DNA from: Planctomycetes bacterium RIFCSPLOWO2_12_FULL_50_35 | GTDB taxonomy: Bacteria > Planctomycetota > Brocadiia > Brocadiales > Bathyanammoxibiaceae | NCBI GenBank assembly: GCA_001828605.1 | Contig: MHZB01000026.1 | Coordinates: 1-59,733, forward strand | Direction of reading: 5' to 3' | Length of the DNA: 59,733 nucleotides | Shown: one piece after another, positions 21,699-44,042 of the stretch | Numbering within the stretch: the first letter of the stretch is position 1 | How the letters are laid out: each line of letters begins with the position of its first letter | Made by a program: the position numbers and the translations under genes | The notes under the pieces: generated by a model | Told to the model about the DNA's origin: nothing | What the model saw: the letters and a program-made list of their open reading frames with translations, nothing else | Database searches by the model: none

Positions 21699-21727
21699 TT
21701 GACTATCTTTTTGGGCTTTGCTAGTAT
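21699..21727 (+). promoter_or_regulatory. sigma-70-like promoter of the haem-c/cytochrome-b module
   Basis: TTGACT, 17-nt spacer, TAGTAT, about 90 nt upstream of ATG 21817. Confidence 0.55.
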
Positions 21728-21816
21728 TTTTTCCCTTCCATTTTGAATCTTCCATAAAATAAAAAAGGAAGCCGACGTTGGGCCCTGCCCAATTGAATTC
21801 GAAAGGAGAAGGATAA

Positions 21817-22581
21817 ATGTTTGTTGGTAGATTTGCAGCATTCCTTTTAATCACTTTGGTAGGTACGTTTCTGGTCCTTGCACCCACGTCTTCAGTTGAA
21901 GCTGCGGATAAACAAAAATATAAGTATACAGGGAACAAGGGTTGTAAGTGCCACCTGTCTCCCGGTGTTTGGGAGGGCGATGAGTGGAAGCAGATAGACC
22001 ATTCCAAGGCATTCAAGAGACTCCAGACTGACGAGGAGAAGAAGGACCCCAAATGTCTCAAGTGCCACACTACAGGCTACGGCGGGAAATTCAAAAACCC
22101 CAAGGAAACTTATCTTGAAGACGTTACCTGTGAGGCCTGTCACGGCCCCGGCGAGGCATACTCGGAGCTGAAGAACAACTACCAGGGCAAGGGCAAAAAG
22201 GCCTTTAACGAACTGCTCGAGAAAGACCCCATGGCGGCCCGCAAGGCGCAGTACGACGCAGGGCTTATTGTTGCCGGTATCAATAACGCATCTGGCAAGG
22301 TCAAGGACCAGTGTCTTGAGTGTCACTGGGAGGATCCTAACGACCCTGAAAAATGTCCGAAGTGCGACAAGGACGACAAAGGTAATCCTATCGCCATGAA
22401 CTTCGATGAGTATTTTAAGAAGGACGATCACAGAGACCTTGATACCATAGACGAGGTCATCAAGAAGATGAGCGATGGGGACAAGGCAAAGTGGAAAGGG
22501 TGCATTGAGAGGGACCCAATCCTTAACACGCCTATAAAGCCGGAAGCCAAGGGAAAGAAGAAAGCGGTAGCAGAGGATTAG
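21817..22581 (+). CDS. soluble tetrahaem cytochrome c with one contracted CXCH site (Kuenenia KsTH/kuste2854-like)
   Basis: 254 aa, signal peptide. Three CXXCH (CLKCH, CEACH, CLECH) plus CKCH, encoded by tgt aag tgc cac at about 21951..21962. First gene of the hzs-associated module. Confidence 0.8.
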   Translation: MFVGRFAAFLLITLVGTFLVLAPTSSVEAADKQKYKYTGNKGCKCHLSPGVWEGDEWKQIDHSKAFKRLQTDEEKKDPKCLKCHTTGYGGKFKNPKETYLEDVTCEACHGPGEAYSELKNNYQGKGKKAFNELLEKDPMAARKAQYDAGLIVAGINNASGKVKDQCLECHWEDPNDPEKCPKCDKDDKGNPIAMNFDEYFKKDDHRDLDTIDEVIKKMSDGDKAKWKGCIERDPILNTPIKPEAKGKKKAVAED

Positions 22582-22638
22582 TATCCGTTGGAATAACCTA
22601 CACAGCTTTGCTGGATAACATAGAGGAGGGTGGGTGTA

Positions 22639-23616
22639 ATGCGTGCAAGGAAGCGAGCGGGAATCTCTGGACTTTCTATTAGTCTACGGTCACTGCTCGC
22701 TTTCTTTTTGTTCTTTGCGTTTTGCAGCGGCGGCCTTGTTATCGCCCAGGAGATTGAGGACTGTATGGAGTGCCACGGCGACCCTGAAAAGGTTGGCAGA
22801 GTTGCGCGTGTAGACAGGGAGACGGGCGAGGTCAAGGTCGTGAACATGCTGGTGGAACAAGATGCATTTATGCAGTCCGCTCACGGCCGCTCAAAAGAAG
22901 GTTTTGTATGCATTGACTGTCATCAGGACCTTGACGGTGTCTACGGGGAGCACAAGCCGCTTTTAAACACCGTTGATTGCATTACCTTCTGTCACGATGA
23001 CCCGGCCGCAGAATTTCTCGAAAGTACCCATGTGGAGCACATGAAGGAGAAGGAGAAGACTCCTCCACGGTGTACGGACTGTCACATGGGGAAAAATTCA
23101 GCGCGAGAGACGCCGGTGGCAGAAGATGCGTTTCACCGCTCCAACGTAAATAAGACATGCGGTCAATGTCACGAGGATTACCTCTTTACTTACTGTACGA
23201 ACATGCACGGCCAGCTTTCAACGCTGGGCGTTCTGACGGACGAAGTGCCGAACTGCTATGACTGTCACGGCGGGCATGACATCCTCAAGTCAGATAACCC
23301 GGACTCCAATGTTGGGGAAAATCATAAAGTAGAGACGTGCGGGAAGTGCCATACGGGTGCAGGTAAAAATTTTGTAAAGCATATCGCTCATCCTGCCTTC
23401 AAGACCCGCAAATTCTATGCGGAGGCATATAAGACATTTACGGAAAAAGGTATCCTGGGAGTCCTTGCAGATCCTCAGTCTTACCTTGCTCTGGTATTCG
23501 TATTGTACATGGGAATAATTGCTCAGGCATTTTCTATGTTCGGAGGCCATGCACTTCTGATGTGGATTAGGACGCTGTTAGACGAGAGAAAGGGCGGGGG
23601 CGGACATGACCACTAA
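22639..23616 (+). CDS. membrane-anchored heptahaem cytochrome c (kuste2855-like)
   Basis: Six CXXCH (CMECH, CIDCH, CTDCH, CGQCH, CYDCH, CGKCH) plus one CX3CH (CITFCH). Signal peptide and a C-terminal TM helix YLALVFVLYMGIIAQAF. GAGGAGGG SD site. Confidence 0.8.
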   Translation: MRARKRAGISGLSISLRSLLAFFLFFAFCSGGLVIAQEIEDCMECHGDPEKVGRVARVDRETGEVKVVNMLVEQDAFMQSAHGRSKEGFVCIDCHQDLDGVYGEHKPLLNTVDCITFCHDDPAAEFLESTHVEHMKEKEKTPPRCTDCHMGKNSARETPVAEDAFHRSNVNKTCGQCHEDYLFTYCTNMHGQLSTLGVLTDEVPNCYDCHGGHDILKSDNPDSNVGENHKVETCGKCHTGAGKNFVKHIAHPAFKTRKFYAEAYKTFTEKGILGVLADPQSYLALVFVLYMGIIAQAFSMFGGHALLMWIRTLLDERKGGGGHDH

Positions 23617-24436
23617 CGGAAAACTATACCAGAGGTTCAGCCCATTTCACAGAATAACTCATTTTCTGTTGATTATAAGTTTCTTTGGTCTGGTGCTGAC
23701 GGGCATGCCCTTGGCCTTTCAAGACCAGGCGTGGGCGCGTTGGCTGTACGAAACCATGGGTGGCCATCCCACCGCCGGTTATATCCATCGCATATGCGCA
23801 GGGATGACGTTCTTCTGCGCCTTTATGCATTTTGCCTATTGCTCATATCTCGCGTTAGTGAAGAGGCATGCAGCGAACATAATCTGGGGTGCGGATGCCA
23901 TTATGATACAGCCAAGGGACGTTAAGGACATTGTTGCGGACCTAAAATGGCTCTTGGGGTTTGGACCACGTCCTGCCTTTGACAGGTGGATATACTGGGA
24001 AAAATTTGAATATCTATCCCTACTGTGGGGCACATTTGTGATGGCCCTTACGGGCCTAATGCTGTGGTTCCCGACGACTTTTTCTATATTCCTGCCTGGC
24101 TGGGCTATTGATATGGGTCTCATTGCCCATAGATACGAGGCAATCCTCGCCGCCGCATTCGTATTTACCATACATTTCATTCATACACACCTGCTTCCGG
24201 AGAAGGTGCCTGTGGACGAGGCCATGTTCACCGGCATCGTGAGCGAAGAGGAGATGCTGCATGAGAGGCCCAGGCATCACAAAAGGCTAAAAGAGGCGAA
24301 TTTACTCAAAAAGTACGAGACCGTACCAAATGTGCCGCTTTCGATAATATCAAAGATAATTGCCGTGCCTTTGCTCTTGATCGGGCTTTTCCTGACAAGC
24401 TTAATGGTTTCGTCACTATTACTTAGCCTGATATAG
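23606..24436 (+). CDS. integral-membrane b-type cytochrome (FdnI/HydC/PhsC-like quinone-interacting subunit; kuste2856-like)
   Basis: 276 aa, 5-6 TM helices with conserved His (HRITHFLL, IHRICAG, HRYEAI, HFIHTH). Overlaps the heptahaem gene by 11 nt. Confidence 0.75.
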   Translation: MTTNGKLYQRFSPFHRITHFLLIISFFGLVLTGMPLAFQDQAWARWLYETMGGHPTAGYIHRICAGMTFFCAFMHFAYCSYLALVKRHAANIIWGADAIMIQPRDVKDIVADLKWLLGFGPRPAFDRWIYWEKFEYLSLLWGTFVMALTGLMLWFPTTFSIFLPGWAIDMGLIAHRYEAILAAAFVFTIHFIHTHLLPEKVPVDEAMFTGIVSEEEMLHERPRHHKRLKEANLLKKYETVPNVPLSIISKIIAVPLLLIGLFLTSLMVSSLLLSLI

Positions 24437-24567
24437 TTTAGTGAGAAAACTGTGCGTATAATCCAGTGGGTCTGGGAGCGCTGGATACTGGTTATTCTGG
24501 GTCACTGCCGATTTTCCAGTACGTTGTAGTACACGCTGGCCTGGGTCAAAAAATCTGGAAAAAATTA

Positions 24568-24595
24568 TTGATTTATTGTGTATTGTGAGTATAAT
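24568..24595 (+). promoter_or_regulatory. strong sigma-70-like promoter ahead of the Cys-rich gene and hzsCBA
   Basis: TTGATT, 16-nt spacer, TATAAT, about 55 nt upstream of GTG 24653. Confidence 0.6.
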
Positions 24596-24652
24596 TGACG
24601 ACCACCTAACCTGAAACTGCCTGGAATAATAAAAAAGGAGGGGGGTGAGAAA

Positions 24653-25174
24653 GTGAAAAAGTTTGGAGTAATAAGCCTAATTGTGCTTCTTGCCTTCTGT
24701 TTTGTTGCTTCACAAGTAGTGCTGGCTGAGGAGAAGCCCTGCCCGAAGGCAAAAATCCTGAAGAAATTCTGGTGTGAACAGTGTAAAGAGGTCAGTGAAT
24801 TTTCGGACTGCTCAAACCAGGAATACATGTGGAACACTGCGGAACACAAAGCAAAAGAAGCGAATCCCCATTCGAATTTACCGCAAACATGGTCTTGTGC
24901 GACCGCAGGTTATTACTGCATAAAGTGTGGTAGGTGCTATCCAAAGCCCGGTATTTGTCTTGACTGCAACGATGATACGGAAAGCAGGAAGAGCTTCTCA
25001 AAGATATTGTTCAAGTGTCCAGACGGGCATGAGCACCACGAAGCGGGCACAGGCTTTAAGTTGAAAGAAGGTGCGTACGAAGAAGAGTTGGTGGACGCCG
25101 GTAATTGTCCAACGTGTGGGAAACATCTGGAGATGATTTGTACAAAGTCCGGAACCTGCCCACACACCACATAG
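24653..25174 (+). CDS. secreted Cys-rich protein (multiple CxxC pairs), hypothetical
   Basis: 173 aa. Signal peptide MKKFGVISLIVLLAFCFVASQVVLA. 16 Cys in the mature part, including CEQCK, CIKCGRC, CLDCN, CPTCG. No CXXCH. Strong SD site aaaggagggggg. Confidence 0.65.
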   Translation: MKKFGVISLIVLLAFCFVASQVVLAEEKPCPKAKILKKFWCEQCKEVSEFSDCSNQEYMWNTAEHKAKEANPHSNLPQTWSCATAGYYCIKCGRCYPKPGICLDCNDDTESRKSFSKILFKCPDGHEHHEAGTGFKLKEGAYEEELVDAGNCPTCGKHLEMICTKSGTCPHTT

Positions 25175-25223
25175 CTCGTAGTGTTTTTAGAGTTCATATT
25201 TAAAAAGGAGGAGGGTTCGCTAG

Positions 25224-26363
25224 ATGAAAAAGAAGTCGTTGTGTAGCGGATTACTAAGTGCCGCGGTGCTCTCCTTGGCGCTTATTTTCATACAGACTGC
25301 TGATGCAGGATATATCCAAGGAACCCGCGTACAATCAGAACACCCCTCGCCATTCAGCATTTCGATCTCGCCTGACGGAAATACCCTTGCAGTTGCAAAC
25401 CAGTCGGGCCATAGTGTTACCTTCATAGACGCTAAGAGTCAGAAGGTGACGGGTGAGGTGGCAGTACATGATCAGCCAGAGTCGTCGGTCTTCTCGCGTG
25501 ACGGCAAGACTCTGTACGTCTGCAACGCAGAATCCGACAGCGTCTCAGTGGTTGATGTTGCTTCTAAGAAAGAGACCAAGGAAATTAAGGTAGGTGACTG
25601 GCCTTGCAATATAAAGCTTAGCAAGGACGGTTCCAAGGCCTATGTGTGTTGCTCTGGGAACATGTGGAACACGGTTGACGTCATTGACACCAGCCGCAAC
25701 GAGAGAGCCAGTGTGATTGAACTACCTGATTATGGTCCTAGGGATATTGCCATATCACCTGATGGTGGCACGGCTGCTTGTATTTGCGATACTGCAGGTT
25801 CCATCAACAGGGCCGTATGCTTTATAGACTTGGCCTCAAATAAGGTCGTAGACAGAAGGCCAATCCGTCACAGCGCCAATCTCAGGAGCGTTGTTTACTC
25901 TCCAGATGGACAGTATGTAGCGGTTACATACATGAAGCCGAAGAACTGGCTGCCTGTCTGCGAGGCCGAGAACGGCGAAGTATTTACGAACAATGTGGCC
26001 GTTATAGAGACAAAGCCCCATGGTAAGCTGGCCCAGCTCCCGTTGGACGAGCTTAACAACTACGATGGGACTCCGTACGGTCTGGCGATCGACCCGCAGG
26101 GAAAGTATCTCTACATTGCCGTACGTGGCATGCACAGGGTTACTATCCTGGACTTCGATAAGATTCGTGACATAATGATCAGCAATACCCAAGAGCAGCT
26201 TGACAGCTACACGGATGACCTGGATTTTGTAAACCACTATCTGGTGCAGAGGGTGCCCGTGGGCCTTGGACCAAGCTGGCTTGCACTTTCCCCAGACGGG
26301 AAGTATTGCTACGTGTGCAATTATTTCTCTAACAACGTGTCGGTTATAAAGACACCGTTATAA
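25224..26363 (+). CDS. hzsC: hydrazine synthase beta subunit (seven-bladed YVTN-type beta-propeller)
   Basis: 379 aa, signal peptide. Repeated D.K..YV.N..S..VSV.D blades (AVANQSGHSVTFID, YVCNAESDSVSVVD, YVCNYFSNNVSVI). Positioned immediately before hzsB-hzsA. Confidence 0.8.
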   Translation: MKKKSLCSGLLSAAVLSLALIFIQTADAGYIQGTRVQSEHPSPFSISISPDGNTLAVANQSGHSVTFIDAKSQKVTGEVAVHDQPESSVFSRDGKTLYVCNAESDSVSVVDVASKKETKEIKVGDWPCNIKLSKDGSKAYVCCSGNMWNTVDVIDTSRNERASVIELPDYGPRDIAISPDGGTAACICDTAGSINRAVCFIDLASNKVVDRRPIRHSANLRSVVYSPDGQYVAVTYMKPKNWLPVCEAENGEVFTNNVAVIETKPHGKLAQLPLDELNNYDGTPYGLAIDPQGKYLYIAVRGMHRVTILDFDKIRDIMISNTQEQLDSYTDDLDFVNHYLVQRVPVGLGPSWLALSPDGKYCYVCNYFSNNVSVIKTPL

Positions 26364-26425
26364 GGACTAAGTTAGTCCCTGAAACTGGATTGTGATAGGT
26401 TTTAGGAAAAGGAGGGGAAGATAGA

Positions 26426-27448
26426 ATGCGTAAGACGATTGTATTTCTTGCGATGGCTGCCCTCATGTTGTTCGGCTTTACGGCCGTTGGTGATGTGACG
26501 GCTGGTGAGGCCAAGGTGGTAGCCACCATACAGACTGGACCGGAGTGGACTCCTCCGGAGAGGGGTGAGCCTCTGACCATTCCTGAGGTTCATTACAGGG
26601 TAAAGCACTCTCCGTACAGGAGTGAGCTTGTGCGTTCAGGACAGTTTTTGTTTAACGATGCCAGCTGGGGTCTTCAGGGCGAGTATTCGTGCGCTGCCTG
26701 CCATTACGAGAGGGGACAGTCCACGGGGCTTATATGGGACCTTGGTGACGAGGGCTGGGGCTCCTGGAAGAACGTGAAGTACATCCGGGGGGGCCGTTAT
26801 CTGCCGCCCTTCAGGCACGAGGGTTTCACCGGTCATCCGGACGAGATAGTCGGTGCAACCAGTTCGATTGACAGGGTATGCGGTCGTGACCCTGGTTTTG
26901 TGTTCAGGAGCGAGAACTGGTCAGCAGACAGGCTTGAGGCGCTTATTGCCTACATAAGGAGCCTTGAGTATACCGGAAGTCCTTTCAGGAATGCCGACGG
27001 TTCGCTGACGGAGGTGCAGAAGAGGGGCATGAAGACGTTCTATGACCCCAAGGTAGGATGCGCCAACTGTCATCCTGGCGATCCGATGGACAAGAGAGGC
27101 ATGTTTGGAGACGGGCAGACCCATGATGTGGGGACTGGCCGTGTGGGGAAGTACGGGTTCAGGTCTACGCCTGGCGCCGTGTTTAACACGAAGGCGCTGG
27201 ATGCCGGAGTAGACCCGTATGGTGAGGAATATGACGTGCCGATTATCGGTCTTGATCTGGTGAAGGAGTTTGACACGCCGACGTTGAGGGACAGCTATGC
27301 ATCAGCGCCCTATTTCCACGACGGCAGTGCGCAGTCCTTGATACAGACCATAGACAACTCCGCTACGGAGAAGGACAAGCACGGAGTTACTTCTCATCTG
27401 ACAGAACAGGAACTCCAAGACGTGGTGGAGTTCATGAAGGCGCTATAA
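26426..27448 (+). CDS. hzsB: hydrazine synthase gamma subunit (di-haem, cytochrome c peroxidase/MauG-like)
   Basis: 340 aa, signal peptide. Two CXXCH (CAACH, CANCH). Contains the peptides GWGSWK and QTHDVGT, which I recall as conserved hzsB primer targets. Confidence 0.85.
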   Translation: MRKTIVFLAMAALMLFGFTAVGDVTAGEAKVVATIQTGPEWTPPERGEPLTIPEVHYRVKHSPYRSELVRSGQFLFNDASWGLQGEYSCAACHYERGQSTGLIWDLGDEGWGSWKNVKYIRGGRYLPPFRHEGFTGHPDEIVGATSSIDRVCGRDPGFVFRSENWSADRLEALIAYIRSLEYTGSPFRNADGSLTEVQKRGMKTFYDPKVGCANCHPGDPMDKRGMFGDGQTHDVGTGRVGKYGFRSTPGAVFNTKALDAGVDPYGEEYDVPIIGLDLVKEFDTPTLRDSYASAPYFHDGSAQSLIQTIDNSATEKDKHGVTSHLTEQELQDVVEFMKAL

Positions 27449-27723
27449 AGAGGAGCTAATGTGAAAAGAGAAGACGGTTGGTTACTACTCCTGGACCAGC
27501 CTGACCTCTCTCCTCTCTGAGGTTGCATGCGTAAAAAGGAGGGTTATCGCTTAGACGTTTTTGAGTACAGAGATTGACCTGGGTCGTTAGCTGACCGAAG
27601 ATTCGTTCGTCTAGTGCCTGCCTTTTAAGCTAATGACGGGTAGGGGTCTAAGACGAGAGGGGAAAAGGTAGTCTCTGGTATTATTATGAGTCGGAGCGGA
27701 CTGAAAGGAGGATGTAGCCAACC

Positions 27724-30171: not shown

Positions 30172-30201
30172 TAGTTAGGGTTTGAGCTGTGCGGTAATTA
30201 T

Positions 30202-30241
30202 AAAGGCTGACGGGGCCTAGTTGCCCCGTCAGCCTTTTTTT
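30202..30241 (+). terminator. rho-independent terminator of hzsCBA
   Basis: Perfect 15-bp stem aaaggctgacggggc / gccccgtcagccttt, 6-nt loop, 7-T run. Confidence 0.85.
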
Positions 30242-30372
30242 GTGATAAGCAGTGCTTGGGGTTGTTAGAGTGACAAACCAGTTGCCCACCGGCTTTTGCG
30301 GAACTGATGTATAGAATCTTTTCAGGAGTCTCATTTACCGAGGGTCACTATCCCTTCGAGAAAAGGAGGGTG

Positions 30373-30972: not shown

Positions 30973-31099
30973 ACCTTTCCCGCAAGGAGTCGGATTAGAT
31001 ATACTCAAGGGTCGTGTGATTATGGCCTGAAGGACAGGGATAAGTTCGTGCGTTTTTTCATCATATCTGCATACTCCACCGATGGTTCTCAAAAATATC

Positions 31100-32973: not shown

Positions 32974-33000
32974 TACAGCTGGAATCATTTGCTAAGAACC

Positions 33001-33040: not shown

Positions 33041-33078
33041 GGTGTGGTGTAGTTTTTTACTTAGGAGGTGCTTATATA

Positions 33079-35125: not shown

Positions 35126-35185
35126 ACGTAATTTTGGCATTCTGTAAGGTATTTGGTGCCGCAAGGTAATGGGTTGGAAATTCTG

Positions 35186-36400: not shown

Positions 36401-36582
36401 CTTTGGACAAGATATTCTGATATTTCACCTATGTCGTCCGGGGTGAACTCAGAATTGCAGTAAAGACATATAAAAGAGGTTACAACTTTTCCGCATGCAG
36501 GACAACCCGTCTGGACGGTCTCTGTCTCGTCAGAAAACCTTGTTTCCTTCTGGCATACGGGGCAGCCAACAATTTTTAACAT
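36397..36582 (-). CDS. small triple CxxC zinc-ribbon protein, hypothetical
   Basis: 61 aa. CPVCQ, CPACG, CLYCN. Convergent with the flavodiiron gene and overlapping it by 4 nt. Confidence 0.45.
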   Translation of the reverse strand: MLKIVGCPVCQKETRFSDETETVQTGCPACGKVVTSFICLYCNSEFTPDDIGEISEYLVQS

Positions 36583-36760: not shown

Positions 36761-36788
36761 TTGACATTTAAGATGACATCTCTATAAT
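36761..36788 (+). promoter_or_regulatory. consensus sigma-70 promoter of hydrazine dehydrogenase
   Basis: TTGACA, 16-nt spacer, TATAAT (both hexamers perfect). Confidence 0.65.
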
Positions 36789-36928: not shown

Positions 36929-38701
36929 ATGCCTAAAACGTTGAAGGTACTGCTAATCTTAGGTTTTGTTGCAGGCCTGTGTTTCATAAGCTCCTTCAAC
37001 GGTGGGTTTGATAATGATGTGTATGCAGTAGAAATCATTACCCACTGGGTGCCTCACGAAGTATATGGTATGCCAGGCGAGCCAGATAATAATGGAAAGG
37101 TTTACTTCTCTGGTCTTGGCGCCAAGTACATGGGTGCACCGAAGGGAGGACCGCCCTGGCCTGGTAAGTACAGTAGGTTTTTTAGGACATTACCTGCCTA
37201 TCGCTATTACATTCCTGACGGTATGTATAATAGAGAGGACCTCCGTCCACCGAACCCGATAAAGGGTGTCTTCCGCAATGAGCAGTGCGTGGGGTGTCAT
37301 GAGGTTTTGACTCCCGGAATTGCAAGAGACTGGAAGATGAGCAGGCATGCTTCAGTTGAGCCCGCTCCGGTAGGTTGTCCGACCTGTCATAACTCTGACC
37401 ACCAGAAGCTGCATATGCCCAGCTCAAAGACCTGTGGTACAGAGGATTGTCACAGCACGCAGTACACACAGCAGATGGAAGGTGGAATTGGTTCTCACGG
37501 ATCCTGCGCCAGCTTTGCTCAGGTAGAGTGCGCATGGTCCATCGAGAGACCACCAGGAGATACTGCCGGTTGTGTGCTTTGTCACACCAGTGCTGAGGAG
37601 AGATGTTCGACTTGTCACGCAAGGCACCGTTTCGATCCCAGGACAGCCAGGAAGTCTGAGCAGTGCAAGACCTGCCACTGGGGTAAAGATCACCGTGACT
37701 GGGAGGCCTATGACATATCCATTCACGGCGTAGTGTATCAGACCGGCAAGTGGGACCCGAAGCTGTTTGACTGGGAACAAAAGTTGTCTGAGGCAACTTA
37801 CACCGGTCCGACATGCGCATATTGCCACATGCGTGGTGGTCATCACAACGTGCAGAAGCTGTCCACGGTCTACACAAGTATGGGTATGTCCATGTGCGAC
37901 CGCGGCGCTCCTCTCTGGCAGGAAAAGAGAGATACATGGGCATCAGTTTGTGACGATTGTCACTCACCCAGATTCGGCAAAGAAATCCTTCAGTGTATGG
38001 ACGAGGCAGTTAAGGATGCCGCCCTTAAGTATCGTGAGACCTTCAAGGTTGCAGAAGATCTCTACAGGGACGGTGTACTAGACCCCATGCCTAAGGACTT
38101 GGCGCCAGACTGGTCTGGTCAGCACATCTGGAGTCTTAAGATCGGCGCTTATCACGGCAACGAGTTTGGTGGAAAGACAGGCGAGTCCGGTGAGTTCAGG
38201 ATGTCCAACTGTACCAACGTAGAGCGTCTGTGCTTCGAGAGCGTTGGTTACTGGCAGACCTATATATTCAAGGGTATGGCTCACGGCAGCTGGAACGACG
38301 CCACATACTGCGATGGCTCCTTTGGTATGGACCGTTGGCTGGTGGACGTCAAGACGCAGGCTTCCAGGGCCAGAAGGCTTGCAGCCCTTGAGAAGAAGGT
38401 CGGAATCACCTGGGTCCCAGAAGACTTCTGGAGACACGGTGAGTGGCTTGACCAGCTTAGTGGTTGGAAGATTGTCAGGGAGTATCCTGGCAAGACCATG
38501 TTTGACCTCTGCCCAGAGCCGGGTTGGCTTGATACACATCATGCACCAGCCGCTGAGGTGGAGTATATCGAGAGAATGATTAAGCAGCTCGGTATGAAGG
38601 CTGGTAGGCATTCTGTTCACGGCCACGGTCATGAGGAGCATGGCACTCAAGGTCCTGAGACGCATGAACACGAATCGCCTGAACATACTCACGCCAGATA
38701 G
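36929..38701 (+). CDS. hdh: hydrazine dehydrogenase (octahaem HAO-like, hzo cluster-1 type)
   Basis: Seven CXXCH plus a CX4CH third site (CGTEDCH). CKTCHW and GQHIWS peptides (recalled hzo primer targets). Signal peptide MPKTLKVLLILGFVAGLCF. In-frame alternative starts at 36863 and 36893. Confidence 0.88.
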   Translation: MPKTLKVLLILGFVAGLCFISSFNGGFDNDVYAVEIITHWVPHEVYGMPGEPDNNGKVYFSGLGAKYMGAPKGGPPWPGKYSRFFRTLPAYRYYIPDGMYNREDLRPPNPIKGVFRNEQCVGCHEVLTPGIARDWKMSRHASVEPAPVGCPTCHNSDHQKLHMPSSKTCGTEDCHSTQYTQQMEGGIGSHGSCASFAQVECAWSIERPPGDTAGCVLCHTSAEERCSTCHARHRFDPRTARKSEQCKTCHWGKDHRDWEAYDISIHGVVYQTGKWDPKLFDWEQKLSEATYTGPTCAYCHMRGGHHNVQKLSTVYTSMGMSMCDRGAPLWQEKRDTWASVCDDCHSPRFGKEILQCMDEAVKDAALKYRETFKVAEDLYRDGVLDPMPKDLAPDWSGQHIWSLKIGAYHGNEFGGKTGESGEFRMSNCTNVERLCFESVGYWQTYIFKGMAHGSWNDATYCDGSFGMDRWLVDVKTQASRARRLAALEKKVGITWVPEDFWRHGEWLDQLSGWKIVREYPGKTMFDLCPEPGWLDTHHAPAAEVEYIERMIKQLGMKAGRHSVHGHGHEEHGTQGPETHEHESPEHTHAR

Positions 38702-38736: not shown

Positions 38737-38781
38737 AAGAGCTGCACAGATGGGTAGTTGCCTCTGTGCAGCTCTTTTTTT
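38737..38781 (+). terminator. rho-independent terminator of hdh
   Basis: 14-bp perfect stem aagagctgcacaga / tctgtgcagctctt, 12-nt loop, 7-T run. Confidence 0.85.
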
Positions 38782-38802
38782 ATAGAATGGAGTTTTGCTG
38801 AG

Positions 38803-40953
38803 ATGAGAATGGTACTTTCAATAGCGCTAAGCTTGTTCCTTGTAGGCCAAATATTTGCGGGTACCGGTGTTGCCGGAGAGGGCTCCGTACTCCACAAAGA
38901 CGTTGCGCAAGATTATTACAAAAAAGGTCAGTATGACGATGCCGTAAATGAATATAAACAGTGGCTCAAGAAGAATCCGTTTGACCCGGAGGCCTTTTTG
39001 GAACTGGGTCAAAGCTACGTGGCTAAGGGGTTGTACAAAGAGGCCGTCGAAGAGTATAAGCAGGCGCTGAAATTCTATCCGGACTATCCCGAGGCACATC
39101 TCAAGTGTGCAGATGCGTATTTTGCGCTTAATGATATGGAGAAGGCCGAATATGAATACCATCAGGCAATCAGGACGAACCCAACCATGGTTGAGGCCTA
39201 CTACAAGCTGGCAGTAATACTTAATATGACGGGAAGATACGATCAGGCCATAGCGCAGTGCAAGAGGGCCATTAACAAGGACCCCCAGTATGCGCAGGCG
39301 TATGTTGCAATGGGTCTTGCTCATTACAAAAATGGCAATTTGGACGAGGCGGTAAATAACTGCAAAAAATCGTTGGAATTAAAGCCGGAACTGATAGAGC
39401 CTCACAGGACACTGGGTCTTGCGTATGCCGGAAGCGGTATGGTTGATGAAAGCATAAGGGAGCTTAGGGTAGTGCTCAATGCGGTCACTGAGGATACGGA
39501 GGCGCGTCTCTGGCTTGGGAAATCACTGGCAAAGAAGGGCCAAAAAGACGAGGCCGTGGAGGAGTACAGGAAGATTCTTTCAGTAAAACCGCAGTATGCA
39601 GATGCCCATTATTATCTTGGTCTCATCTACTATGACAAAGGCCTTGTTGACGAGGCAATAGTGGAATACAAGAGCACGATAGATACCAACCCCAAACACC
39701 CGGAGGTACACACTGGACTGGGGATGGCATATAGTCAGAAAAGGGCATTTGAGGGGGTTATATCTGAGTTTGGGAAGGCGGTTGAGATAAAATCCTCACA
39801 ACCGGACGAGTTTATAGCGGCCATGAGAGAGGCCATAAATTCCGACCCGAACAATGTGGAGGCAAAGGTCTATCTTGGGATTGCGCTGGCGGATAAAGGG
39901 AGATTGGATGAGGCGATAGAACTTTATCAAAATGCCATTTCCCTGAGCCGTTATTACGTTGATGCCCATTACCGTCTCGGTCTGGCATATGCAGAAAAGG
40001 GTCTTTTGGAGGAAGCTGCCGCAGAATTCAAGCAAGTTATAGAGATAAACCCAAAATATGCGGATGCCCATAAAGAATTGGCCGATACATTCAATAGGAT
40101 TGGTGCACCTAAGGATGAGTACACGATATGGTCCAACGCAGTGGAACGCGACCCCGACGACACCAAGGCCCATCTGGGGCTCGGTATGTATTTCCACCGC
40201 ATGAATAATATTGACGACGCCAAGGCAGAGTATGACAAGGTACTGGAGCTGGACCCTTATAATGCCAGCGCATGCTATAACCTGGGTGTACTGTACCAGG
40301 ATTTGCACCTTTCCGAACGGGCGATACCTTACTATCAAAGGTGCATAGAGCTTAAGCCGCAGTACGACAAGGCTTATTTCAATCTGGCACTTGCATATCA
40401 GGATCAGGAGAGGTACGAAGAGGCGATAGGAATATACGAGAAGGCACTTAATATCAATCCTGACTATGCTCAGGGTCGAGTTAATCTGGGCCTCCTCTAC
40501 TATGCGCAGGATATGTTTGATGAGGCCCAGCTGCAGTTTAATAAGGCCCTGGAGGCTGACCCGGACCTTGCAGAGGCCTACTACCTTATCGGCGTGATAG
40601 AGGGGAAGAAGGGGAATGTTGACGTTGCGCTCGAGAAGACGCGAAAGGCCCTTGAACATGACCCGGATCATGTCCATGCCCATTTCAATCTGGCTACCAT
40701 CCTCTACATGAAGGGTAACCTGGAGGAAGCACTAAAGGAGTATCAGAAGACGATACAGATGAATAGAACCTATGCCGACGCCTACTATAACGTCGCCAAG
40801 ATATATGAGGAGTGGGGCATGAGAGCCGAGGCGGAGAGCTATTTTGTGCAGTATGAAAAGGCTAAGGCAACACAGCAGGATGCCACAGGAGTTGCGCGTA
40901 AGGTCGTTGAAGAACAGGAGTTGATGCCGGATCCAAGCACATACGTTAGGTAA
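38803..40953 (+). CDS. secreted TPR-repeat protein (about 20 TPR units)
   Basis: Signal peptide MRMVLSIALSLFLVGQIFA, then continuous 34-aa repeats (A..Y..AL...P....A...LG..Y). The track ORF start at 38758 lies inside the hdh terminator. Confidence 0.85.
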   Translation: MRMVLSIALSLFLVGQIFAGTGVAGEGSVLHKDVAQDYYKKGQYDDAVNEYKQWLKKNPFDPEAFLELGQSYVAKGLYKEAVEEYKQALKFYPDYPEAHLKCADAYFALNDMEKAEYEYHQAIRTNPTMVEAYYKLAVILNMTGRYDQAIAQCKRAINKDPQYAQAYVAMGLAHYKNGNLDEAVNNCKKSLELKPELIEPHRTLGLAYAGSGMVDESIRELRVVLNAVTEDTEARLWLGKSLAKKGQKDEAVEEYRKILSVKPQYADAHYYLGLIYYDKGLVDEAIVEYKSTIDTNPKHPEVHTGLGMAYSQKRAFEGVISEFGKAVEIKSSQPDEFIAAMREAINSDPNNVEAKVYLGIALADKGRLDEAIELYQNAISLSRYYVDAHYRLGLAYAEKGLLEEAAAEFKQVIEINPKYADAHKELADTFNRIGAPKDEYTIWSNAVERDPDDTKAHLGLGMYFHRMNNIDDAKAEYDKVLELDPYNASACYNLGVLYQDLHLSERAIPYYQRCIELKPQYDKAYFNLALAYQDQERYEEAIGIYEKALNINPDYAQGRVNLGLLYYAQDMFDEAQLQFNKALEADPDLAEAYYLIGVIEGKKGNVDVALEKTRKALEHDPDHVHAHFNLATILYMKGNLEEALKEYQKTIQMNRTYADAYYNVAKIYEEWGMRAEAESYFVQYEKAKATQQDATGVARKVVEEQELMPDPSTYVR

Positions 40954-41230: not shown

Positions 41231-42652
41231 TTACCTGGTGTCTGCGACGCAGCGAAAACCGATTGCCCTGTTTCTTTCATCCGGCCTGGCAAAGGATCTC
41301 TTTGTGCATCTGAGCAGATACGCGGAGTTGGCAAAGAGTGATCCCCCCCGCATAGACCTGACCCCGGTAGATTTTTCCGGTCCTTTTGGGTTAGATGTCG
41401 GACCTCTTTTGTAGTAGTAGCGGTCAAACCAGTCGCTGCACCATTCCATCACACTACCCGCCATATCGTGGCATCCAAAAACACTCTTGCCGTCCTCATA
41501 ACTGCCGACTGTAAGAGGTCCGGTTGCTCCCCAGTTTACCCTTGAGGCGCTGAAGACGTCACCCCAGGGAAACCGTCTGCCATCGGTGCCCCTTGCCGCC
41601 TTTTCCCATTCTGCCTCTGCTGGAAGGCGCTTTCCCGCCCATGCGGCATAGGCATAGGCGTCGTACCAGTCTATTCTTATTACTGGAAAATCAGGATGGT
41701 CGAAGTATCTGTCTTCATACCACTTATCGGGTGTGTGGTCTTTGTCTTTGGGTTCGCCTGGGTAGCATTTGCTGTGGTCGCCGGTCTCACGAACGTGCTT
41801 TAAAAACGCCCAGTATTGGGCATTTGTAACTTCATATTTGTCTATGTAAAAGGCGTCCAAATATACTTCCCTTTGCGGCGTTTCCTCCAGCCTTGCATTC
41901 TCGCTCATTTCATCCCTGAAATTGCTTCCCATTACAAAGATACCTGCGGGCACGACGACCATCTCTTCCCATTTGCTCCGGTTCTCCTCCAGGGCCTTCT
42001 TCATTATCTCACTTTTCCGCTCTTCCTTATCCTGGAGCCTTTTCTCTTTCTCCCGCGGCTTTAGGCTGGTCTCCGCCTCTTCCAGTTTCGCCACATAACC
42101 CTCGATTTGCTGCCTTGCCTCGGTATTCTCATAGGGTATCAACTTTAAACATTCGTCCAGGTGTTTCAAGGCCGACTTTTTGTCACCCAACTGCCAGTAA
42201 ACACCCCCAAGCTTGTAGTGCACAGATGGGTCTGAAGGGTCTAGTTCCAACACACGTAAGAGTTCGTTCAATGCATCCTCAAAGTATGCCTCTTCTATCA
42301 GTTGGTCCGCCTTTTCTGTGCGCTTCTTGGCCATTTCCTTGAGCTGTTCCTTGGTAAGTTCTTCCGGGGCGGCCCCTGGTTTTTCGGCCGGTGCAGGTTC
42401 CAGTTCAGCTCCGTCGTTGCGGCAGAAGGTCTCTCCGAGTTCACCCCTTTGCCCGCATTTTGGACAGATGAGTTCCGCCTCCACTGCGAGTAGTTCCGTA
42501 CCGTCTTTTCCGCAGAATTTTATATCTTCCGTATACATCTGGCCGCAGTCCGGACACCTCTTTGTTTCCGGCGTTTCGGGCTCGGACCATGTTACAGACG
42601 TTGATATGCAGATGGTAACGACAAACAGTAGGTGCAAAAATAACCTAATCAT
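41231..42652 (-). CDS. secreted/anchored protein: double zinc ribbon, TPR, and formylglycine-generating-enzyme (SUMF1/FGE) domain
   Basis: ATG 42652 with a GGAGG SD site. Hydrophobic N-terminus, CPDCG..FCGKDG and CPKCG..FCRNDG ribbons, TPR segment. C-terminal FGE-type domain (YDAYAYAAWAGKRLPAEAEWEKAARG, RGGS, GFRCV). Confidence 0.8.
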   Translation of the reverse strand: MIRLFLHLLFVVTICISTSVTWSEPETPETKRCPDCGQMYTEDIKFCGKDGTELLAVEAELICPKCGQRGELGETFCRNDGAELEPAPAEKPGAAPEELTKEQLKEMAKKRTEKADQLIEEAYFEDALNELLRVLELDPSDPSVHYKLGGVYWQLGDKKSALKHLDECLKLIPYENTEARQQIEGYVAKLEEAETSLKPREKEKRLQDKEERKSEIMKKALEENRSKWEEMVVVPAGIFVMGSNFRDEMSENARLEETPQREVYLDAFYIDKYEVTNAQYWAFLKHVRETGDHSKCYPGEPKDKDHTPDKWYEDRYFDHPDFPVIRIDWYDAYAYAAWAGKRLPAEAEWEKAARGTDGRRFPWGDVFSASRVNWGATGPLTVGSYEDGKSVFGCHDMAGSVMEWCSDWFDRYYYKRGPTSNPKGPEKSTGVRSMRGGSLFANSAYLLRCTKRSFARPDERNRAIGFRCVADTR

Positions 42653-42753
42653 CTTTACCTCCAACAACTTACACAAATGCGTGTACCCAGTAATATGTGG
42701 CGTAAAAATAAATGTTACCATATAGACACCAAAAATCAACACGCTAAAAACAC

Positions 42754-42783
42754 TTGAAACGGCCGGTATCATTGTGGTAAAAT
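42754..42783 (+). promoter_or_regulatory. possible promoter of the 11-haem gene
   Basis: TTGAAA, 18-nt spacer, TAAAAT, about 55 nt upstream of ATG 42837. Confidence 0.35.
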
Positions 42784-42836
42784 TCCTATCTCTCAAACCT
42801 TATCCTAGATAGAGTCCAACAAAGAGGAGGGGCCTC

Positions 42837-44042
42837 ATGGCAGAAGGTGAGAAGTGTGAATGCTGGTCAACCAAGACCATAGACTGGGTAAAGCAGAATA
42901 AAAGGACAGTAAGGATTGGTCTTGTCGTTTTCCTGCTGGTATTCGGCTTTGCCAACCTGCAGATGTACCACTACTCAGAGACCTGCGAGTTTTGCGGCTT
43001 GCTCTGCCATGAGATGAATGTGCATTATTCCTCCTTCATGGAGTCAAAGCACCACAACGAACACGTTCACAACTGTCACGAGTGTCATGTGGGAGCAGGC
43101 ATGAAGGGTTTTCTCCATGCGAAACTCAGCGACGGTACGCACGACACATTTGAGCATCTTAAGGGTACTTTTGCCGACGGCAGGATTATAGAGGTTGCAG
43201 AAGATAGCGTACCCACGGTAAACAGCAATTGCATTAGGTGTCATTCAGAGGGGTACACAAAAGACCAGACGCATCTGCCTGCGGTTGCCGTAAGTACGCG
43301 CAAAATAAGCGAAGGTGTCTTTAAGAATCTTATGTGCACCGATTGTCATGCCGGCCTGGTACACCCGCATATGCCTGGGGACCTCTTCAAGGCATATACA
43401 GAAATGAAAAAGTCTCATCCGGATGCCAAGATAGAACCGATAGGTACGTATAAGGATGTAGAGTGTCTCGGCTGCCACAAGAACACTACCCCTGAGGTCG
43501 TAAAGGAATGGACCAACAGCGGACACGCAAAGAAAGGCGTGACCTGCGATGGGTGCCATGGTAACGACCACAGCGTAATTAAAGAAAGGTCCGGGCACGT
43601 TACAGCGGCCAGTTGCGCCCAGTGCCATGAGAAGGCCTACAATGAGTTTAAGGAGACCAAACATATACAAGGCCGGGTTGTAGCCACTGTCGCTGGACAA
43701 GATGTCATGACGAAGCAGCTGAGTATGTATCTCTGCAAGGACTGCCACCGCTTTGGAATGATACGCCCATGGGACGAAACCGGCGAGGACTGCGGCTCGT
43801 GTCACCTGGGGCACGTATTTTCCAAACAAGAGGCATCGAAGTCCACCGCATGTGAGAAGTGTCATACGGGTGGGGCATTCCCCGACCATTCGCAGCTTGA
43901 CGTATCCGAGAACTCACCGCATGGTAAGATGTATGCCAAGTGGAGTGAAAGGATGGGGCGCACACCTGCCTGTCAGGAGTGTCACGGTCCTGAACACAGC
44001 CACAATTTTGAAAAATTCAGTGTTGTACACGAATCACTTTGA
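42837..44042 (+). CDS. membrane-anchored 11-haem cytochrome c: NapC/NirT/NrfH-like N-terminus fused to a truncated HAO-like haem core
   Basis: TM helix, CX3CH-EM (CGLLCHEM), then CHECH, CIRCH, CTDCH. HAO-like spacing follows: CLGCH..W..SGHA..CDGCHGNDH, CAQCH, CKDCH, CGSCHLGHVF, CEKCHTGG..DH, CQECHGPEH. Confidence 0.8.
   Translation: MAEGEKCECWSTKTIDWVKQNKRTVRIGLVVFLLVFGFANLQMYHYSETCEFCGLLCHEMNVHYSSFMESKHHNEHVHNCHECHVGAGMKGFLHAKLSDGTHDTFEHLKGTFADGRIIEVAEDSVPTVNSNCIRCHSEGYTKDQTHLPAVAVSTRKISEGVFKNLMCTDCHAGLVHPHMPGDLFKAYTEMKKSHPDAKIEPIGTYKDVECLGCHKNTTPEVVKEWTNSGHAKKGVTCDGCHGNDHSVIKERSGHVTAASCAQCHEKAYNEFKETKHIQGRVVATVAGQDVMTKQLSMYLCKDCHRFGMIRPWDETGEDCGSCHLGHVFSKQEASKSTACEKCHTGGAFPDHSQLDVSENSPHGKMYAKWSERMGRTPACQECHGPEHSHNFEKFSVVHESL

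Follow-up and report, generated by a model that had tools for sequence, protein, structure and literature searches.

Hydrazine synthesis and oxidation genes of a Bathyanammoxibiaceae bacterium form a probably ancestral gene block shared across anammox families

In the DNA analyzed here (59,733 nt, hereafter the window, to which all positions refer), the genes for hydrazine synthesis and oxidation lie within about 22 kb, between 21699 and 44042. This stretch is most probably (about 85%) the ancestral core of anammox catabolism, passed on vertically as a block, rather than a consolidation peculiar to one lineage or a mobile island. The term ancestral is based on parsimony over three of the five families and not on a rooted reconstruction. 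The source matches 'Ca. Avalokitesvara rifleensis' from the Rifle aquifer, or a very near relative of it, in the basal family 'Ca. Bathyanammoxibiaceae': the octahaem hydroxylamine oxidase (HOX) shares 99% identity with a protein of Ca. Avalokitesvara rifleensis, and the undecahaem cytochrome (c11) was 100% identical to its counterpart in RIFCSPLOWO2_02_FULL_50_16. Bin_313, a member of the Bathyanammoxibiaceae, has a GC content of 50%.

A preliminary description of the window had placed an electron module, hzsCBA, an HAO-like gene, hdh, trpBA, a flavodiiron protein, TPR and FGE proteins and an 11-haem cytochrome in this cluster. We recovered every one of them where it had been placed, and the clustering within 22 kb is real. 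Two genes had been overlooked, one for a Cys-rich kuste2858-like protein and one for a pentapeptide-repeat protein. All genes between 21699 and 44042 lie on the + strand except FGE. The features of the block and its flanks are as follows (ETM, electron-transfer module; HDH, hydrazine dehydrogenase; TM, transmembrane).

19016-20865, +: accB (biotin carboxyl carrier protein) and accC (biotin carboxylase), conserved left flank (Pfam Biotin_lipoyl; Biotin_carb_N/CPSase_L_D2/Biotin_carb_C)
21699-21727, +: promoter-like site 5' of ETM subunit 1, TTGACT-17-TAGTAT with TG (weak 9/12 match, background level)
21817-22581, +: ETM subunit 1, exported trihaem c554-like cytochrome, kuste2854 equivalent (Pfam Cytochrome_C554; 3 CXXCH; signal/TM segment)
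22630-23616, +: ETM subunit 2, heptahaem cytochrome with C-terminal TM segment, kuste2855 equivalent (6 CXXCH and 1 CX3CH; multihaem Pfam matches)
23606-24436, +: ETM subunit 3, FdoI/cytochrome b561-like integral membrane protein, kuste2856 equivalent (4 TM segments)
24653-25174, +: exported 173-aa Cys-rich protein, kuste2858 equivalent, directly 5' of hzsC (signal peptide)
25224-26363, +: hzsC, hydrazine synthase beta subunit, seven-bladed propeller (5c2v_B 538 bits; NCBIfam hydrazine_beta 724, cut-off 560)
26426-27448, +: hzsB, hydrazine synthase gamma subunit, dihaem CCP/MauG-like (5c2v_C 582 bits; 2 CXXCH; NCBIfam hydrazine_gamma 701, cut-off 625)
27724-30171, +: hzsA, hydrazine synthase alpha subunit (5c2v_A 1187 bits; Pfam HZS_alpha; NCBIfam hydrazine_alpha 1557, cut-off 800)
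30202-30237, +: intrinsic-terminator-like hairpin 3' of hzsA (15-bp stem, then T run)
30307-30972, +: 221-aa pentapeptide-repeat protein with N-terminal hydrophobic segment (Pfam Pentapeptide E 2e-38)
31100-31127, +: perfect sigma-70 consensus promoter for HOX, TTGACA-16-TATAAT (12/12 match)
31294-32973, +: HOX, octahaem hydroxylamine oxidase, kustc1061 orthologue (8 CXXCH; Hao_C domain)
33000-33033, +: hairpin 3' of the HOX stop codon, possible terminator/attenuator before trpB (15-bp stem; weak T tail)
33079-34320, +: trpB, tryptophan synthase beta (TIGR00263 637, cut-off 392)
34313-35125, +: trpA, tryptophan synthase alpha (TIGR00262 278, cut-off 102; Pfam Trp_syntA)
35153-36400, +: class-A flavodiiron protein lacking a signal peptide (Pfam ODP and Flavodoxin_1)
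36761-36788, +: perfect sigma-70 consensus promoter for HDH, TTGACA-16-TATAAT (consensus match)
36929-38701, +: HDH, hydrazine dehydrogenase (6hif 1038 bits; NCBIfam hydrazine_HDH 1180, cut-off 900)
38758-40953, +: exported TPR-repeat protein, directly 3' of HDH (Pfam TPR families; signal-like N-terminus)
41231-42796, -: membrane-anchored FGE protein, zinc ribbon, TPR and FGE-sulfatase domain (Pfam FGE-sulfatase E 3e-55; DZR; TPR)
42837-44042, +: c11, 401-aa membrane-anchored undecahaem cytochrome (10 CXXCH and 1 CX3CH; TM 25-43)
44271-50379, +: acn, mdh and sdhCDAB, conserved right flank (Pfam)

In profile searches, every catabolic gene scored above its curated equivalog cut-off; the solved structures nearest to these genes are Kuenenia crystal structures. 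The longest open reading frames of HOX, trpB and HDH begin too far upstream, with likely starts at 31294, 33079 and 36929. The label hzsCBA used in the preliminary description is right as gene nomenclature, hzsC being the beta-propeller kuste2859 and hzsB the dihaem kuste2860. Its label HAO-like can be refined to an orthologue of the kustc1061-type HOX, for which the best solved structure was 4n4j (kustc1061, 824 bits), with 6t5e at 824 and 6hif at 352. Reading this gene as an HDH was rejected at an HDH equivalog score of 388 against a cut-off of 900. The HDH itself carries seven CXXCH motifs and one CX4CH, the latter being diagnostic for HDH (PMC6469936). The ETM equivalents in Kuenenia are annotated as triheme (kuste2854), hepta heme (kuste2855) and fdoI-like (kuste2856). 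Subunit 1 is kept at 46-65% identity across families; subunit 3, a putative quinol-interaction site, matches Pfam Ni_hydr_CYTB weakly and the formate dehydrogenase gamma profile TIGR01583 at E 8e-10. Searches of Pfam and NCBIfam profiles gave no match for the 173-aa Cys-rich protein. Its orthologues hold the corresponding place in every family, and 15 Cys as well as the Lys of a CxxCK motif are invariant among them. By analogy with Kuenenia biochemistry, the ETM would deliver electrons from the quinol pool to hydrazine synthase, whose alpha, beta and gamma subunits would form N2H4 from NO and NH4+; HOX would return leaked NH2OH to NO, and HDH would oxidize N2H4 to N2.

Adjacency could mean that all 22 kb are transcribed together as a super-operon, with all members co-regulated. 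This is compatible with the co-orientation of all genes but FGE, with several short gaps and with the overlaps of the genes for ETM subunits 2 and 3 and of trpB and trpA; nevertheless, we consider it unlikely. Promoters and terminators were read from the sequence as consensus matches only. hzsA is followed by a strong hairpin and a T run, HOX by a further hairpin, and FGE lies on the opposite strand, convergent with the TPR gene. Perfect consensus promoters stand before HOX and HDH and are kept in other families: in other loci, the 12/12 match precedes HOX in 42 of 43 cases and alignment places an equivalent of the hzsA hairpin ahead of it, and an 11-12/12 match with a 16-nt spacer precedes 44 of 49 HDH genes. 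In addition, the flanks are divided between hzs copies in Brocadia-like genomes. With a terminator-like hairpin behind hzsA and separate promoters for HOX and HDH, the genes of the block are predicted not to form one operon. The conserved sigma-70 promoters of HOX and HDH are among the most useful by-products of this analysis. The promoter-like site 5' of ETM subunit 1 coincides with position 21699, at which the preliminary description had begun the cluster.

The preliminary description took the consolidation to be unusual, possibly reflecting a genus-level architecture, unless it proved standard in all sequenced anammox genomes. We compared 105 loci anchored on hzsA or HDH from public genomes and metagenomes (numbered L001 onwards). 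The order accBC–ETM–hzsCBA–HOX–trpBA–HDH–TPR–FGE(-)–c11–TCA genes was seen in Bathyanammoxibiaceae, in Scalinduaceae and, within the Brocadiaceae, in Brocadia and Loosdrechtia, including the complete Brocadia pituitae genome (L017), so that the arrangement is not unusual; it is largely the standard, though not in every lineage. A HOX-type gene directly follows hzsA in 36 of the 43 loci that extend 2.5 kb or more beyond hzsA, trpB comes next after HOX in 33/39, and HDH is reached in 15 of the 28 loci with at least 9 kb. Seen from HDH, trpA lies 5' in 33 of 39 loci and is lacking there in six, the TPR gene lies 3' in most, and FGE and c11 follow in 12 of the 18 with enough downstream sequence. 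The order from the ETM through the Cys-rich gene, hzsCBA, HOX, trpBA, HDH and TPR to FGE(-) is found in L017, L010, L011, L019 and L050, and through TPR in Loosdrechtia (L013) and Scalindua arabica (L036, L038). HOX-trpBA-HDH-TPR-FGE-c11-acn is present on nine Brocadia-like metagenome contigs and hzsCBA-HOX-trpBA-HDH-TPR-FGE-c11-mdh-sdhA in L088. In L003, L004 and L052, a subgroup of the loci closest in hzsA, HDH does not follow the flavodiiron gene, and in some Scalindua loci (L041, L043, L048, L034) other HAO paralogues or a gap precede HDH. Gene order of this kind, intact in the window, is ordinary for most anammox bacteria without being universal, Kuenenia being the exception.

That ancestrally dispersed genes, as in Kuenenia, were gathered here as a derived genus-level novelty is highly unlikely. 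Kuenenia, the best-studied reference, does have separate hzs, HDH and HOX loci, and nothing recognisable follows hzsA in Anammoxibacter (L029), Subterrananammoxibius (L051) and the groundwater MAG L009. However, Brocadia, Loosdrechtia and Scalindua share the order including trpBA, TPR, FGE and the strand of FGE, and it is very improbable that 10 genes, housekeeping insertions among them, would have come into the same order independently. A recent transfer from a Bathyanammoxibiaceae donor is opposed by a protein divergence of 20-45% that tracks trpBA. On this comparison, the shared gene order already largely refutes a derived novelty, and the housekeeping genes trpBA are indicated to have occupied the place between HOX and HDH before the families split. 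What is lineage-specific here is the insertion of the flavodiiron and pentapeptide genes and the lack of the σ54 regulator. The flavodiiron protein, which is cytoplasmic, resembles NorV, with a score under the NorV cut-off, and its gene lies 3' of trpA only in L001-L004, L047, L052, L106, L108 and L109, the hzsA-closest, Bathyanammoxibiaceae-like loci. The pentapeptide gene, a species-specific insertion that sits between the hairpin of hzsA and the promoter of HOX, also occurs in L106 and L107 (97.7% nucleotide identity) and is missing from L001, L002 and all other families compared.

Still less probable is a transferable island that moved horizontally between anammox lineages; a transferable island was one of the possibilities raised in the preliminary description. 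Key functions are tightly packed, and the duplication of hzsCBA in several genomes indicates that the module can be copied. Against this, composition does not set the cluster apart from its flanks (GC 0.509 vs 0.506, GC3 0.572 vs 0.561; Mann-Whitney p 0.87 and 0.44). The window contains no tRNA, profile searches of it turned up no integrase or transposase domain, and no hzsA homologue was found in the plasmid, phage and viral (IMG/VR) collections searched. The flanks consist of housekeeping genes and are syntenic across families: in loci of Brocadia, Anammoxibacter and Scalindua, accBC (44-71% identity) precedes the ETM, and c11 is followed by acn in Brocadia-like and by mdh-sdh in Scalindua-like loci. 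By divergence, hzsA, HOX, HDH, trpB and trpA each separate the three families, and their pairwise distance matrices are correlated (r 0.89–0.97), the catabolic genes tracking trpBA.

Least likely of all is an assembly chimera joining separate loci across repeated HAO/hzs sequences: there are multiple copies of the hzs and HAO genes, many public contigs end at hzsA, and the short metagenome contig L086 fuses unrelated sequence to an HDH fragment 100% identical to the window, yet seven independently assembled contigs (NCBI, ENA, JGI, Logan) reproduce every junction of 21679-54042 at 97.7-99.9% identity, and more distant genomes have the same order. L106 and L107 are collinear with the window over 21679-36478 save one indel (97.7%), and L108-L112 over parts of 32837-54042 (99.8-99.9%). 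With at least seven independent assemblies agreeing, the arrangement is judged not to be chimeric.

The block retains the TPR, FGE and c11 genes together with HDH across families, which strengthens the earlier idea that their association hints at function; in Brocadia- and Scalindua-like loci, FGE has the same position and is likewise on the minus strand. A further particularly useful by-product is that c11 is linked to HDH throughout the anammox bacteria, and every c11 match bearing a source name came from the anammox lineage. Like the NapC/NirT/NrfH membrane quinol dehydrogenases, c11 has an N-terminal TM segment followed closely by a tetrahaem module aligned over the full NrfH profile (TIGR03153, E 2e-18, residues 27-176), scoring 66.8, below the curated cut-off of 134. 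Its homologues carry the FCxSCHEM first-haem signature and match Pfam PF03264; in Bathyanammoxibiaceae the first haem motif is CX3CH. Unlike these enzymes, c11 has seven extra haems in a C-terminal part that resembles the HAO/HDH core (residues 202-401), all 11 haem motifs being invariant in 10 homologues, and it has no neighbouring gene for an NrfA-, Nap- or Nir-type partner.

Similar arrangements have been described for KSU-1 (Jettenia) and Scalindua profunda (scal01318-scal01317), where an octahaem HOX-type hao directly follows hzsA and Kuenenia is named as the exception (PMC3655542). The KSU-1 accessions run from BAF98477 (HzsA) and BAF98478 (HAO) to BAF98481 (HzoB) (PMC3655542), a gap consistent with two intervening genes, which would be trpBA. 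The beta and gamma subunits, separate in the window, are fused in S. profunda, and the window additionally has the pentapeptide-repeat and flavodiiron genes. B. pituitae (AP021856.1, 846-868 kb) agrees with the window in order and strands from accBC to FGE(-), with consecutive accessions BBO16434 (hzsA) and BBO16435 (HAO) and TTGACA/T-16-TATAAT before HOX and HDH. Its proteins are 41-77% identical to those of the window, apart from the TPR region with two separate, much weaker matches (35-37%). Unlike the window, it lacks the flavodiiron and pentapeptide genes and possesses a second, bare hzsCBA copy (L018) and a sigma-54 regulator, identified by Pfam: a 463-aa activator occupies the place between ETM subunit 3 and the small Cys-rich protein where the window has a 217-bp gap.

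In Kuenenia stuttgartiensis, kuste2854-2861 encode the trihaem, heptahaem, FdoI-like, small, beta-propeller, dihaem and alpha proteins in the same order as the window, which differs in lacking the sigma-54 response regulator kuste2857 (taken as annotated). HOX (kustc1061) and HDH (kustc0694, kustd1340) lie elsewhere in that genome, for kustc1061 according to the S. profunda paper (PMC3655542). The dispersed layout was taken from two papers, and the separate loci given in the preliminary description are borne out by the CSTR1 locus tags (hzs KsCSTR_12670-90 and _28190-210; HDH _46980 and _11820; HOX _43280). This layout would be a derived rearrangement, probably favoured by duplicated hzsCBA copies, because two such copies split the ancestral flanks in several Brocadia-like genomes.

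The genes between 21.7 and 44.0 kb of the window form a conserved catabolic block whose layout is the norm among anammox bacteria. The cluster is real but ordinary, and it has partly been in the literature since 2008-2013, in the KSU-1 and Scalindua genome papers. According to the ORF listing, Pfam, NCBIfam and comparison with solved structures, its genes are nearly all co-oriented.

Genes of the catabolic block in the window (positions, product, supporting matches)
21817-22581, trihaem c554-like cytochrome of the three-gene electron-transfer module (ETM); haem count 3
22630-23616, heptahaem cytochrome of the ETM; six CXXCH motifs and one CX3CH
23606-24436, FdoI/cytochrome-b561-like membrane protein of the ETM; four TM segments, similarity to TIGR01583
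24653-25174, exported Cys-rich protein of 173 aa, kuste2858-like; no family match
25224-26363, hzsC, beta-propeller subunit of hydrazine synthase (HZS); 5c2v_B 538 bits, NF052340 724 (cut-off 560)
26426-27448, hzsB, dihaem gamma subunit of HZS, CCP-like; 5c2v_C 582 bits, NF052341 701 (cut-off 625)
27724-30171, hzsA, alpha subunit of HZS; 5c2v_A 1187 bits, NF052339 1557 (cut-off 800)
30307-30972, pentapeptide-repeat protein
31294-32973, HOX, octahaem HAO of the kustc1061 (hydroxylamine oxidase) type; eight CXXCH motifs, Hao_C (PF22142)
After HOX, trpB and trpA; each above its own NCBIfam equivalog cut-off
After trpA, class-A flavodiiron protein; no signal peptide
After the flavodiiron gene, HDH, hydrazine dehydrogenase of the kustc0694 type; 6hif 1038 bits, NF052343 1180 (cut-off 900)
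After HDH, exported TPR protein
Minus strand, FGE, membrane protein with zinc ribbon, TPR and FGE-sulfatase domain
42837-44042, c11, undecahaem cytochrome of 401 aa; 11 haem motifs, N-terminal TM helix

The catabolic genes listed in the preliminary description were all confirmed, with minor corrections: two genes had gone unmentioned, and three start codons sit 3' of the longest-ORF starts. Its label hzsCBA was also right, as in the published nomenclature hzsC names the propeller beta subunit (kuste2859) and hzsB the dihaem gamma subunit (kuste2860) (PMC3655542). A wrong subunit order, suspected because the propeller gene precedes the dihaem gene, was therefore dismissed, and the order beta-gamma-alpha of the window is the one given in PMC12758564. 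The haem and TM make-up of the ETM agrees with the Kuenenia annotations of kuste2854-2856. The HZS alpha subunit contains the HZS middle domain PF18582 and two CXXCH motifs. From orthology to the Kuenenia enzyme we infer that the HZS of the window makes N2H4 from NO and NH4+.

The best solved relatives of HOX are 4n4j (kustc1061) and 6t5e with 824 bits each, compared with 352 bits for 6hif and 154 bits for 6h5l, and on the HDH equivalog it scores 388, below the cut-off of 900. The difference between 824 and 352 bits together with the failed HDH equivalog identifies this octahaem HAO as the HOX orthologue. Its sequence YNATYGTG aligns with YNQTYGNG of kustc1061, and the tyrosine of this motif is presumably the cross-linking tyrosine of oxidative HAOs. 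Compared with kustc1061, about 17 extra residues are inserted in HOX at residues ~137-170, a surface-like stretch ahead of the second haem motif. HDH reaches 1038 bits with 6hif and 399 bits with HOX among the solved structures. It carries seven CXXCH motifs and a CX4CH at residue 191 (haem 3), the latter being described as diagnostic of HDH (PMC6469936). The HDH match in a contig of the metagenomic bin Bin_313 (L002:8936-10684) contains three in-frame stops, which could mean a pseudogene or an error of assembly or of sequencing.

Gene order was compared in two scans, one of species-representative genomes with an HzsA alignment as query (57 loci) and one of JGI metagenomes with an HDH alignment as query (47 loci), and the window proteins were mapped onto all loci of both by tblastn. 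A HOX-type gene was located at most 1.2 kb downstream of hzsA in 36/43 loci with at least 2.5 kb of sequence after hzsA. Likewise, trpB followed hzsA in 33 of the 39 loci with at least 5.5 kb and HDH in 15 of the 28 loci with at least 9 kb of such sequence. Among the HDH loci, trpA was present upstream of HDH in 33 of the 39 that have 2.5 kb or more of upstream sequence, and minus-strand FGE and c11 were found downstream of HDH in 12 of the 18 that have 7.5 kb or more of downstream sequence. The ETM lay directly upstream of hzs in most loci with at least 8.5 kb before hzsA (16/20). The complete order accBC, ETM, Cys-rich protein, hzsCBA, HOX, trpBA, HDH, TPR and minus-strand FGE occurs in the complete genome of Brocadia pituitae (L017), where the accessions of HzsA and HAO are consecutive. 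The stretch from hzsCBA to HDH is also present in other Brocadia-like genomes, in Loosdrechtia and in Scalindua arabica. Metagenome contigs reach c11 and then continue into acn in Brocadia-like or mdh–sdh in Scalindua-like loci, and one Scalindua-like contig (L088) holds hzsCBA through sdhA. The flanks of the window's block are syntenic with other lineages as well. The clustering had been put forward as unusual, perhaps a genus-level architecture; the recurrence of this order in Brocadia-like, Loosdrechtia and Scalindua loci speaks against that view.

The premise behind it, that catabolic genes lie at separate loci, holds for Kuenenia but not beyond. In Scalindua profunda and KSU-1 hao adjoins hzsA on the downstream side, whereas kustc1061 of Kuenenia is sited elsewhere in the genome (PMC3655542), and the locus tags of Kuenenia CSTR1 confirm dispersed catabolic genes. 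The Kuenenia layout is taken from the literature, our own DNA hits being a 2.6-kb contig and, in the genome scan, a 4.9-kb K. hertensis contig and nothing from K. stuttgartiensis. Exceptions to the order comprise second hzsCBA copies in Brocadia-like loci (L008, L018, L046), Anammoxibacter (L029), Subterrananammoxibius (L051), a groundwater MAG (L009) and a subgroup of the loci closest in hzsA, which have unrelated genes after the flavodiiron gene (L052). In B. pituitae, which has two hzsCBA copies (L017/L018), both ancestral flanks have stayed with one of them. Two further Brocadia-like genomes (L008/L010 and L046/L019) have the ETM flank on one copy and the HOX–trpBA–HDH flank on the other. 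Such a split of the flanks between copies may have been a route to a dispersed layout like that of Kuenenia.

An alternative raised in the preliminary description was that the block is a transferable catabolic island. Its base composition equals that of its flanks, with a GC of 0.509 in 16 cluster genes versus 0.506 in 21 flanking genes (p 0.87) and a GC3 of 0.572 versus 0.561 (p 0.44). The window contains no tRNA genes and no Pfam domains of integrases, transposases or conjugation proteins, and no HzsA relatives were found in PLSDB plasmids, INPHARED phages or IMG/VR. The neighbouring genes are housekeeping genes, namely dnaA, pepP and accBC upstream and acn, mdh, sdhCDAB, ppdk, purH and trpF downstream. 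Moreover, the pairwise distance matrices of hzsA, HOX and HDH are correlated among themselves and with those of the embedded trpB and trpA (r 0.89-0.97; 15 loci, three families). For none of these genes does any distance within a family reach the smallest distance between families, so that the three families are recovered from the distance matrices. Composition, housekeeping flanks, the lack of mobile carriage and congruent distances argue for vertical co-inheritance and against transfer, and the mobile island was rejected. The dnaA gene (16359-17759) lies about 4 kb 5' of the block in the same orientation, and the block has a positive GC skew along its length. A position of the block at oriC was discarded, as the number of DnaA-box matches (16, with 13 expected) does not rise above chance and the matches form no cluster.

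A chimeric assembly is very unlikely, since every junction is reproduced by independent overlapping assemblies. MHYX01000011.1 (NCBI) and contigs from ENA, JGI and two Logan runs match the window at 99.8-99.9% identity and are collinear with it over 32837-54042 or parts thereof. JAUQZY010000016.1 and DBJWZC010000088.1 (NCBI) are 97.7% identical and collinear over 21679-36478 except for one insertion. This insertion of 6.5 kb in the sister-strain contig JAUQZY010000016.1 (L106:13545-20060, corresponding to 35126-35143 of the window) lies between trpA and the flavodiiron gene and encodes two pseudopilin-like proteins (N_methyl/T2SSG) and several of unknown function; it is missing from the window and from five other assemblies. 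In a metagenome contig of 1.8 kb (L086), 518 bp of unrelated sequence (L086:1-518) are fused to an HDH fragment 100% identical to the window. L086 is probably a small chimera, a defect of that contig itself and not of the window.

Inherited together, the genes of the block do not appear to be transcribed as a single unit. A hairpin with a 15-bp stem and a T run follows hzsA (30202-30237), and a second hairpin follows HOX (33000-33033). Perfect TTGACA-N16-TATAAT sequences are located at 31100-31127, 5' of HOX, and at 36761-36788, 5' of HDH. Upstream of HOX genes a 12/12 sigma-70 match was present in 42/43 loci, and upstream of HDH 44 of the 49 genes had an 11-12/12 match, in every case with a spacer of 16 nt. 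This conservation spans three families from Bathyanammoxibiaceae to Scalinduaceae. The regions 5' of hzsA, hzsC and c11 gave only 8-10/12 matches, which is background level; all these promoter calls are consensus matches and not mapped transcription starts. The retention of the HOX and HDH promoters amid otherwise unalignable intergenic sequence argues for function. Together with the hairpins, these promoters of their own suggest that the block is not one operon, and this evidence against a single-operon organisation is new here. The conserved sigma-70 promoters also offer ready-made strong elements for expression work and future genetics in uncultured anammox bacteria.

By analogy with Kuenenia, the ETM would pass quinol electrons to HZS, which would combine NO and ammonium to hydrazine; HOX would return leaked hydroxylamine to NO, and HDH would oxidize hydrazine to N2. 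How the electrons of HDH reach the quinone pool is a standing question in the literature, for which the HDH-linked TPR, FGE and c11 genes are concrete candidates. c11 lies about 4 kb downstream of HDH in Brocadiaceae-like and Scalinduaceae-like loci as well as in the lineage of the window. As this position downstream of HDH, TPR and FGE has been kept, c11 is a candidate for the link from HDH to quinone; it adjoins TCA and sdh genes equally. The protein has a TM helix at residues 25-43 and its first four haem motifs at 53, 80, 132 and 167. Residues 27-176 span the entire NrfH profile (E 2e-18), and residues 202-401 resemble the haem core of HAO and HDH. Its NrfH score (TIGR03153) is 66.8 bits, below the cut-off of 134.2, and c11 was therefore not filed as a plain NapC/NirT/NrfH member. 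PF03264 is precomputed for the homologues of Brocadiaceae and Scalinduaceae and not listed for the window protein. From these similarities c11 may work like a NapC/NrfH quinol dehydrogenase without being a plain member of that family. The databases contain 70 homologues, all of about 400 aa and several annotated as NapC/NirT family, and their named sources are all anammox lineages, unclassified Planctomycetota or wastewater MAGs. In an alignment of ten sequences (A4) all 11 haem motifs are invariant. The first motif is CX3CH (FCGLLCHEM, with a one-residue insertion) in the window and its two closest aligned homologues (67-79% identical), that is in Bathyanammoxibiaceae, whereas the homologues of Brocadiaceae and Scalinduaceae have the canonical FCxSCHEM of NapC/NirT.

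Synteny suggests a further reading, which we consider rather improbable, namely that c11 is the long-sought membrane entry point for hydrazine-derived electrons, with TPR and FGE acting in assembly or maturation of the HDH module. In such a scheme c11, as a quinone-reactive anchor of the NapC/NrfH type fused to an HAO-like core of seven haems, would take electrons from HDH, directly or via a small cytochrome, and reduce the quinone pool of the anammoxosome membrane, and its TPR and FGE neighbours would assemble or mature the HDH side. In Kuenenia the HDH assembly factor Kustc1130 is encoded apart from HDH (locus tags kustc1130 and kustc0694), and among the genes of the window's block none is an obvious ~10-kDa candidate for it. 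As a claim of unusual architecture the cluster is of little importance, its layout being the norm for anammox bacteria; the useful by-products are the promoters conserved ahead of HOX and HDH and the finding that c11, TPR and FGE stay linked to HDH.

Some parts of the block are specific to the lineage of the window. A flavodiiron gene after trpA is restricted to loci with an hzsA that shares 72% identity or more with that of the window; one of these loci (Bin_313) is assigned to Bathyanammoxibiaceae. The pentapeptide-repeat gene, whose product has an N-terminal hydrophobic segment, is confined to the species of the window (the window and the two 97.7%-identical relatives) and lies as an insertion in the stretch from the hzsA terminator to the HOX promoter. 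Just 5' of the ETM, a small exported protein with a heavy-metal-associated (HMA) domain is encoded at 21087-21461; it was not found at this position in other lineages. The 173-aa Cys-rich protein has 15 invariant Cys including three CxxC pairs (alignment A3), and its likewise invariant CxxCK could be a site for lysine-ligated haem or belong to a metal or disulfide knot.

In B. pituitae (L017, 5396-6787) a sigma-54 response regulator is encoded between the ETM and hzs, and kuste2857 of Kuenenia is annotated as the equivalent regulator. In contrast, the gap of the window at 24436-24653 holds no ORF, and a regulator of the kuste2857 type is absent from the window. A regulator-sized gap between the ETM and hzs is seen in other Brocadia-like and Scalindua loci, and no such gap in L052 and Anammoxibacter (L027, L029). 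The sigma-54 regulator is an accessory, not a catalytic, feature of the ETM-hzs cluster.

HzsA of the window shares 86% identity at best with the clustered database proteins, the values being about 64% for Brocadia and Kuenenia and about 57% for Scalindua. For HOX, a protein named Ca. Avalokitesvara rifleensis shows 99% identity, and for c11, one from Planctomycetes bacterium RIFCSPLOWO2_02_FULL_50_16 shows 100%. A 930-bp fragment of Bin_313 matches hzsA of the window at 99% identity, and this bin has the same GC content as the window (50%). Bin_313 has been assigned to 'Ca. Bathyanammoxibiaceae', a family regarded as the basal anammox lineage, for which a 2025 study reported hzs genes split over contigs. 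The window provides an uninterrupted block from the ETM over hzsCBA, HOX, trpBA and HDH to c11 for this family. An intact block in a basal family supports the view that the block already existed before the anammox families diverged and that the layout in Kuenenia, the biochemical reference, is a rearranged one.
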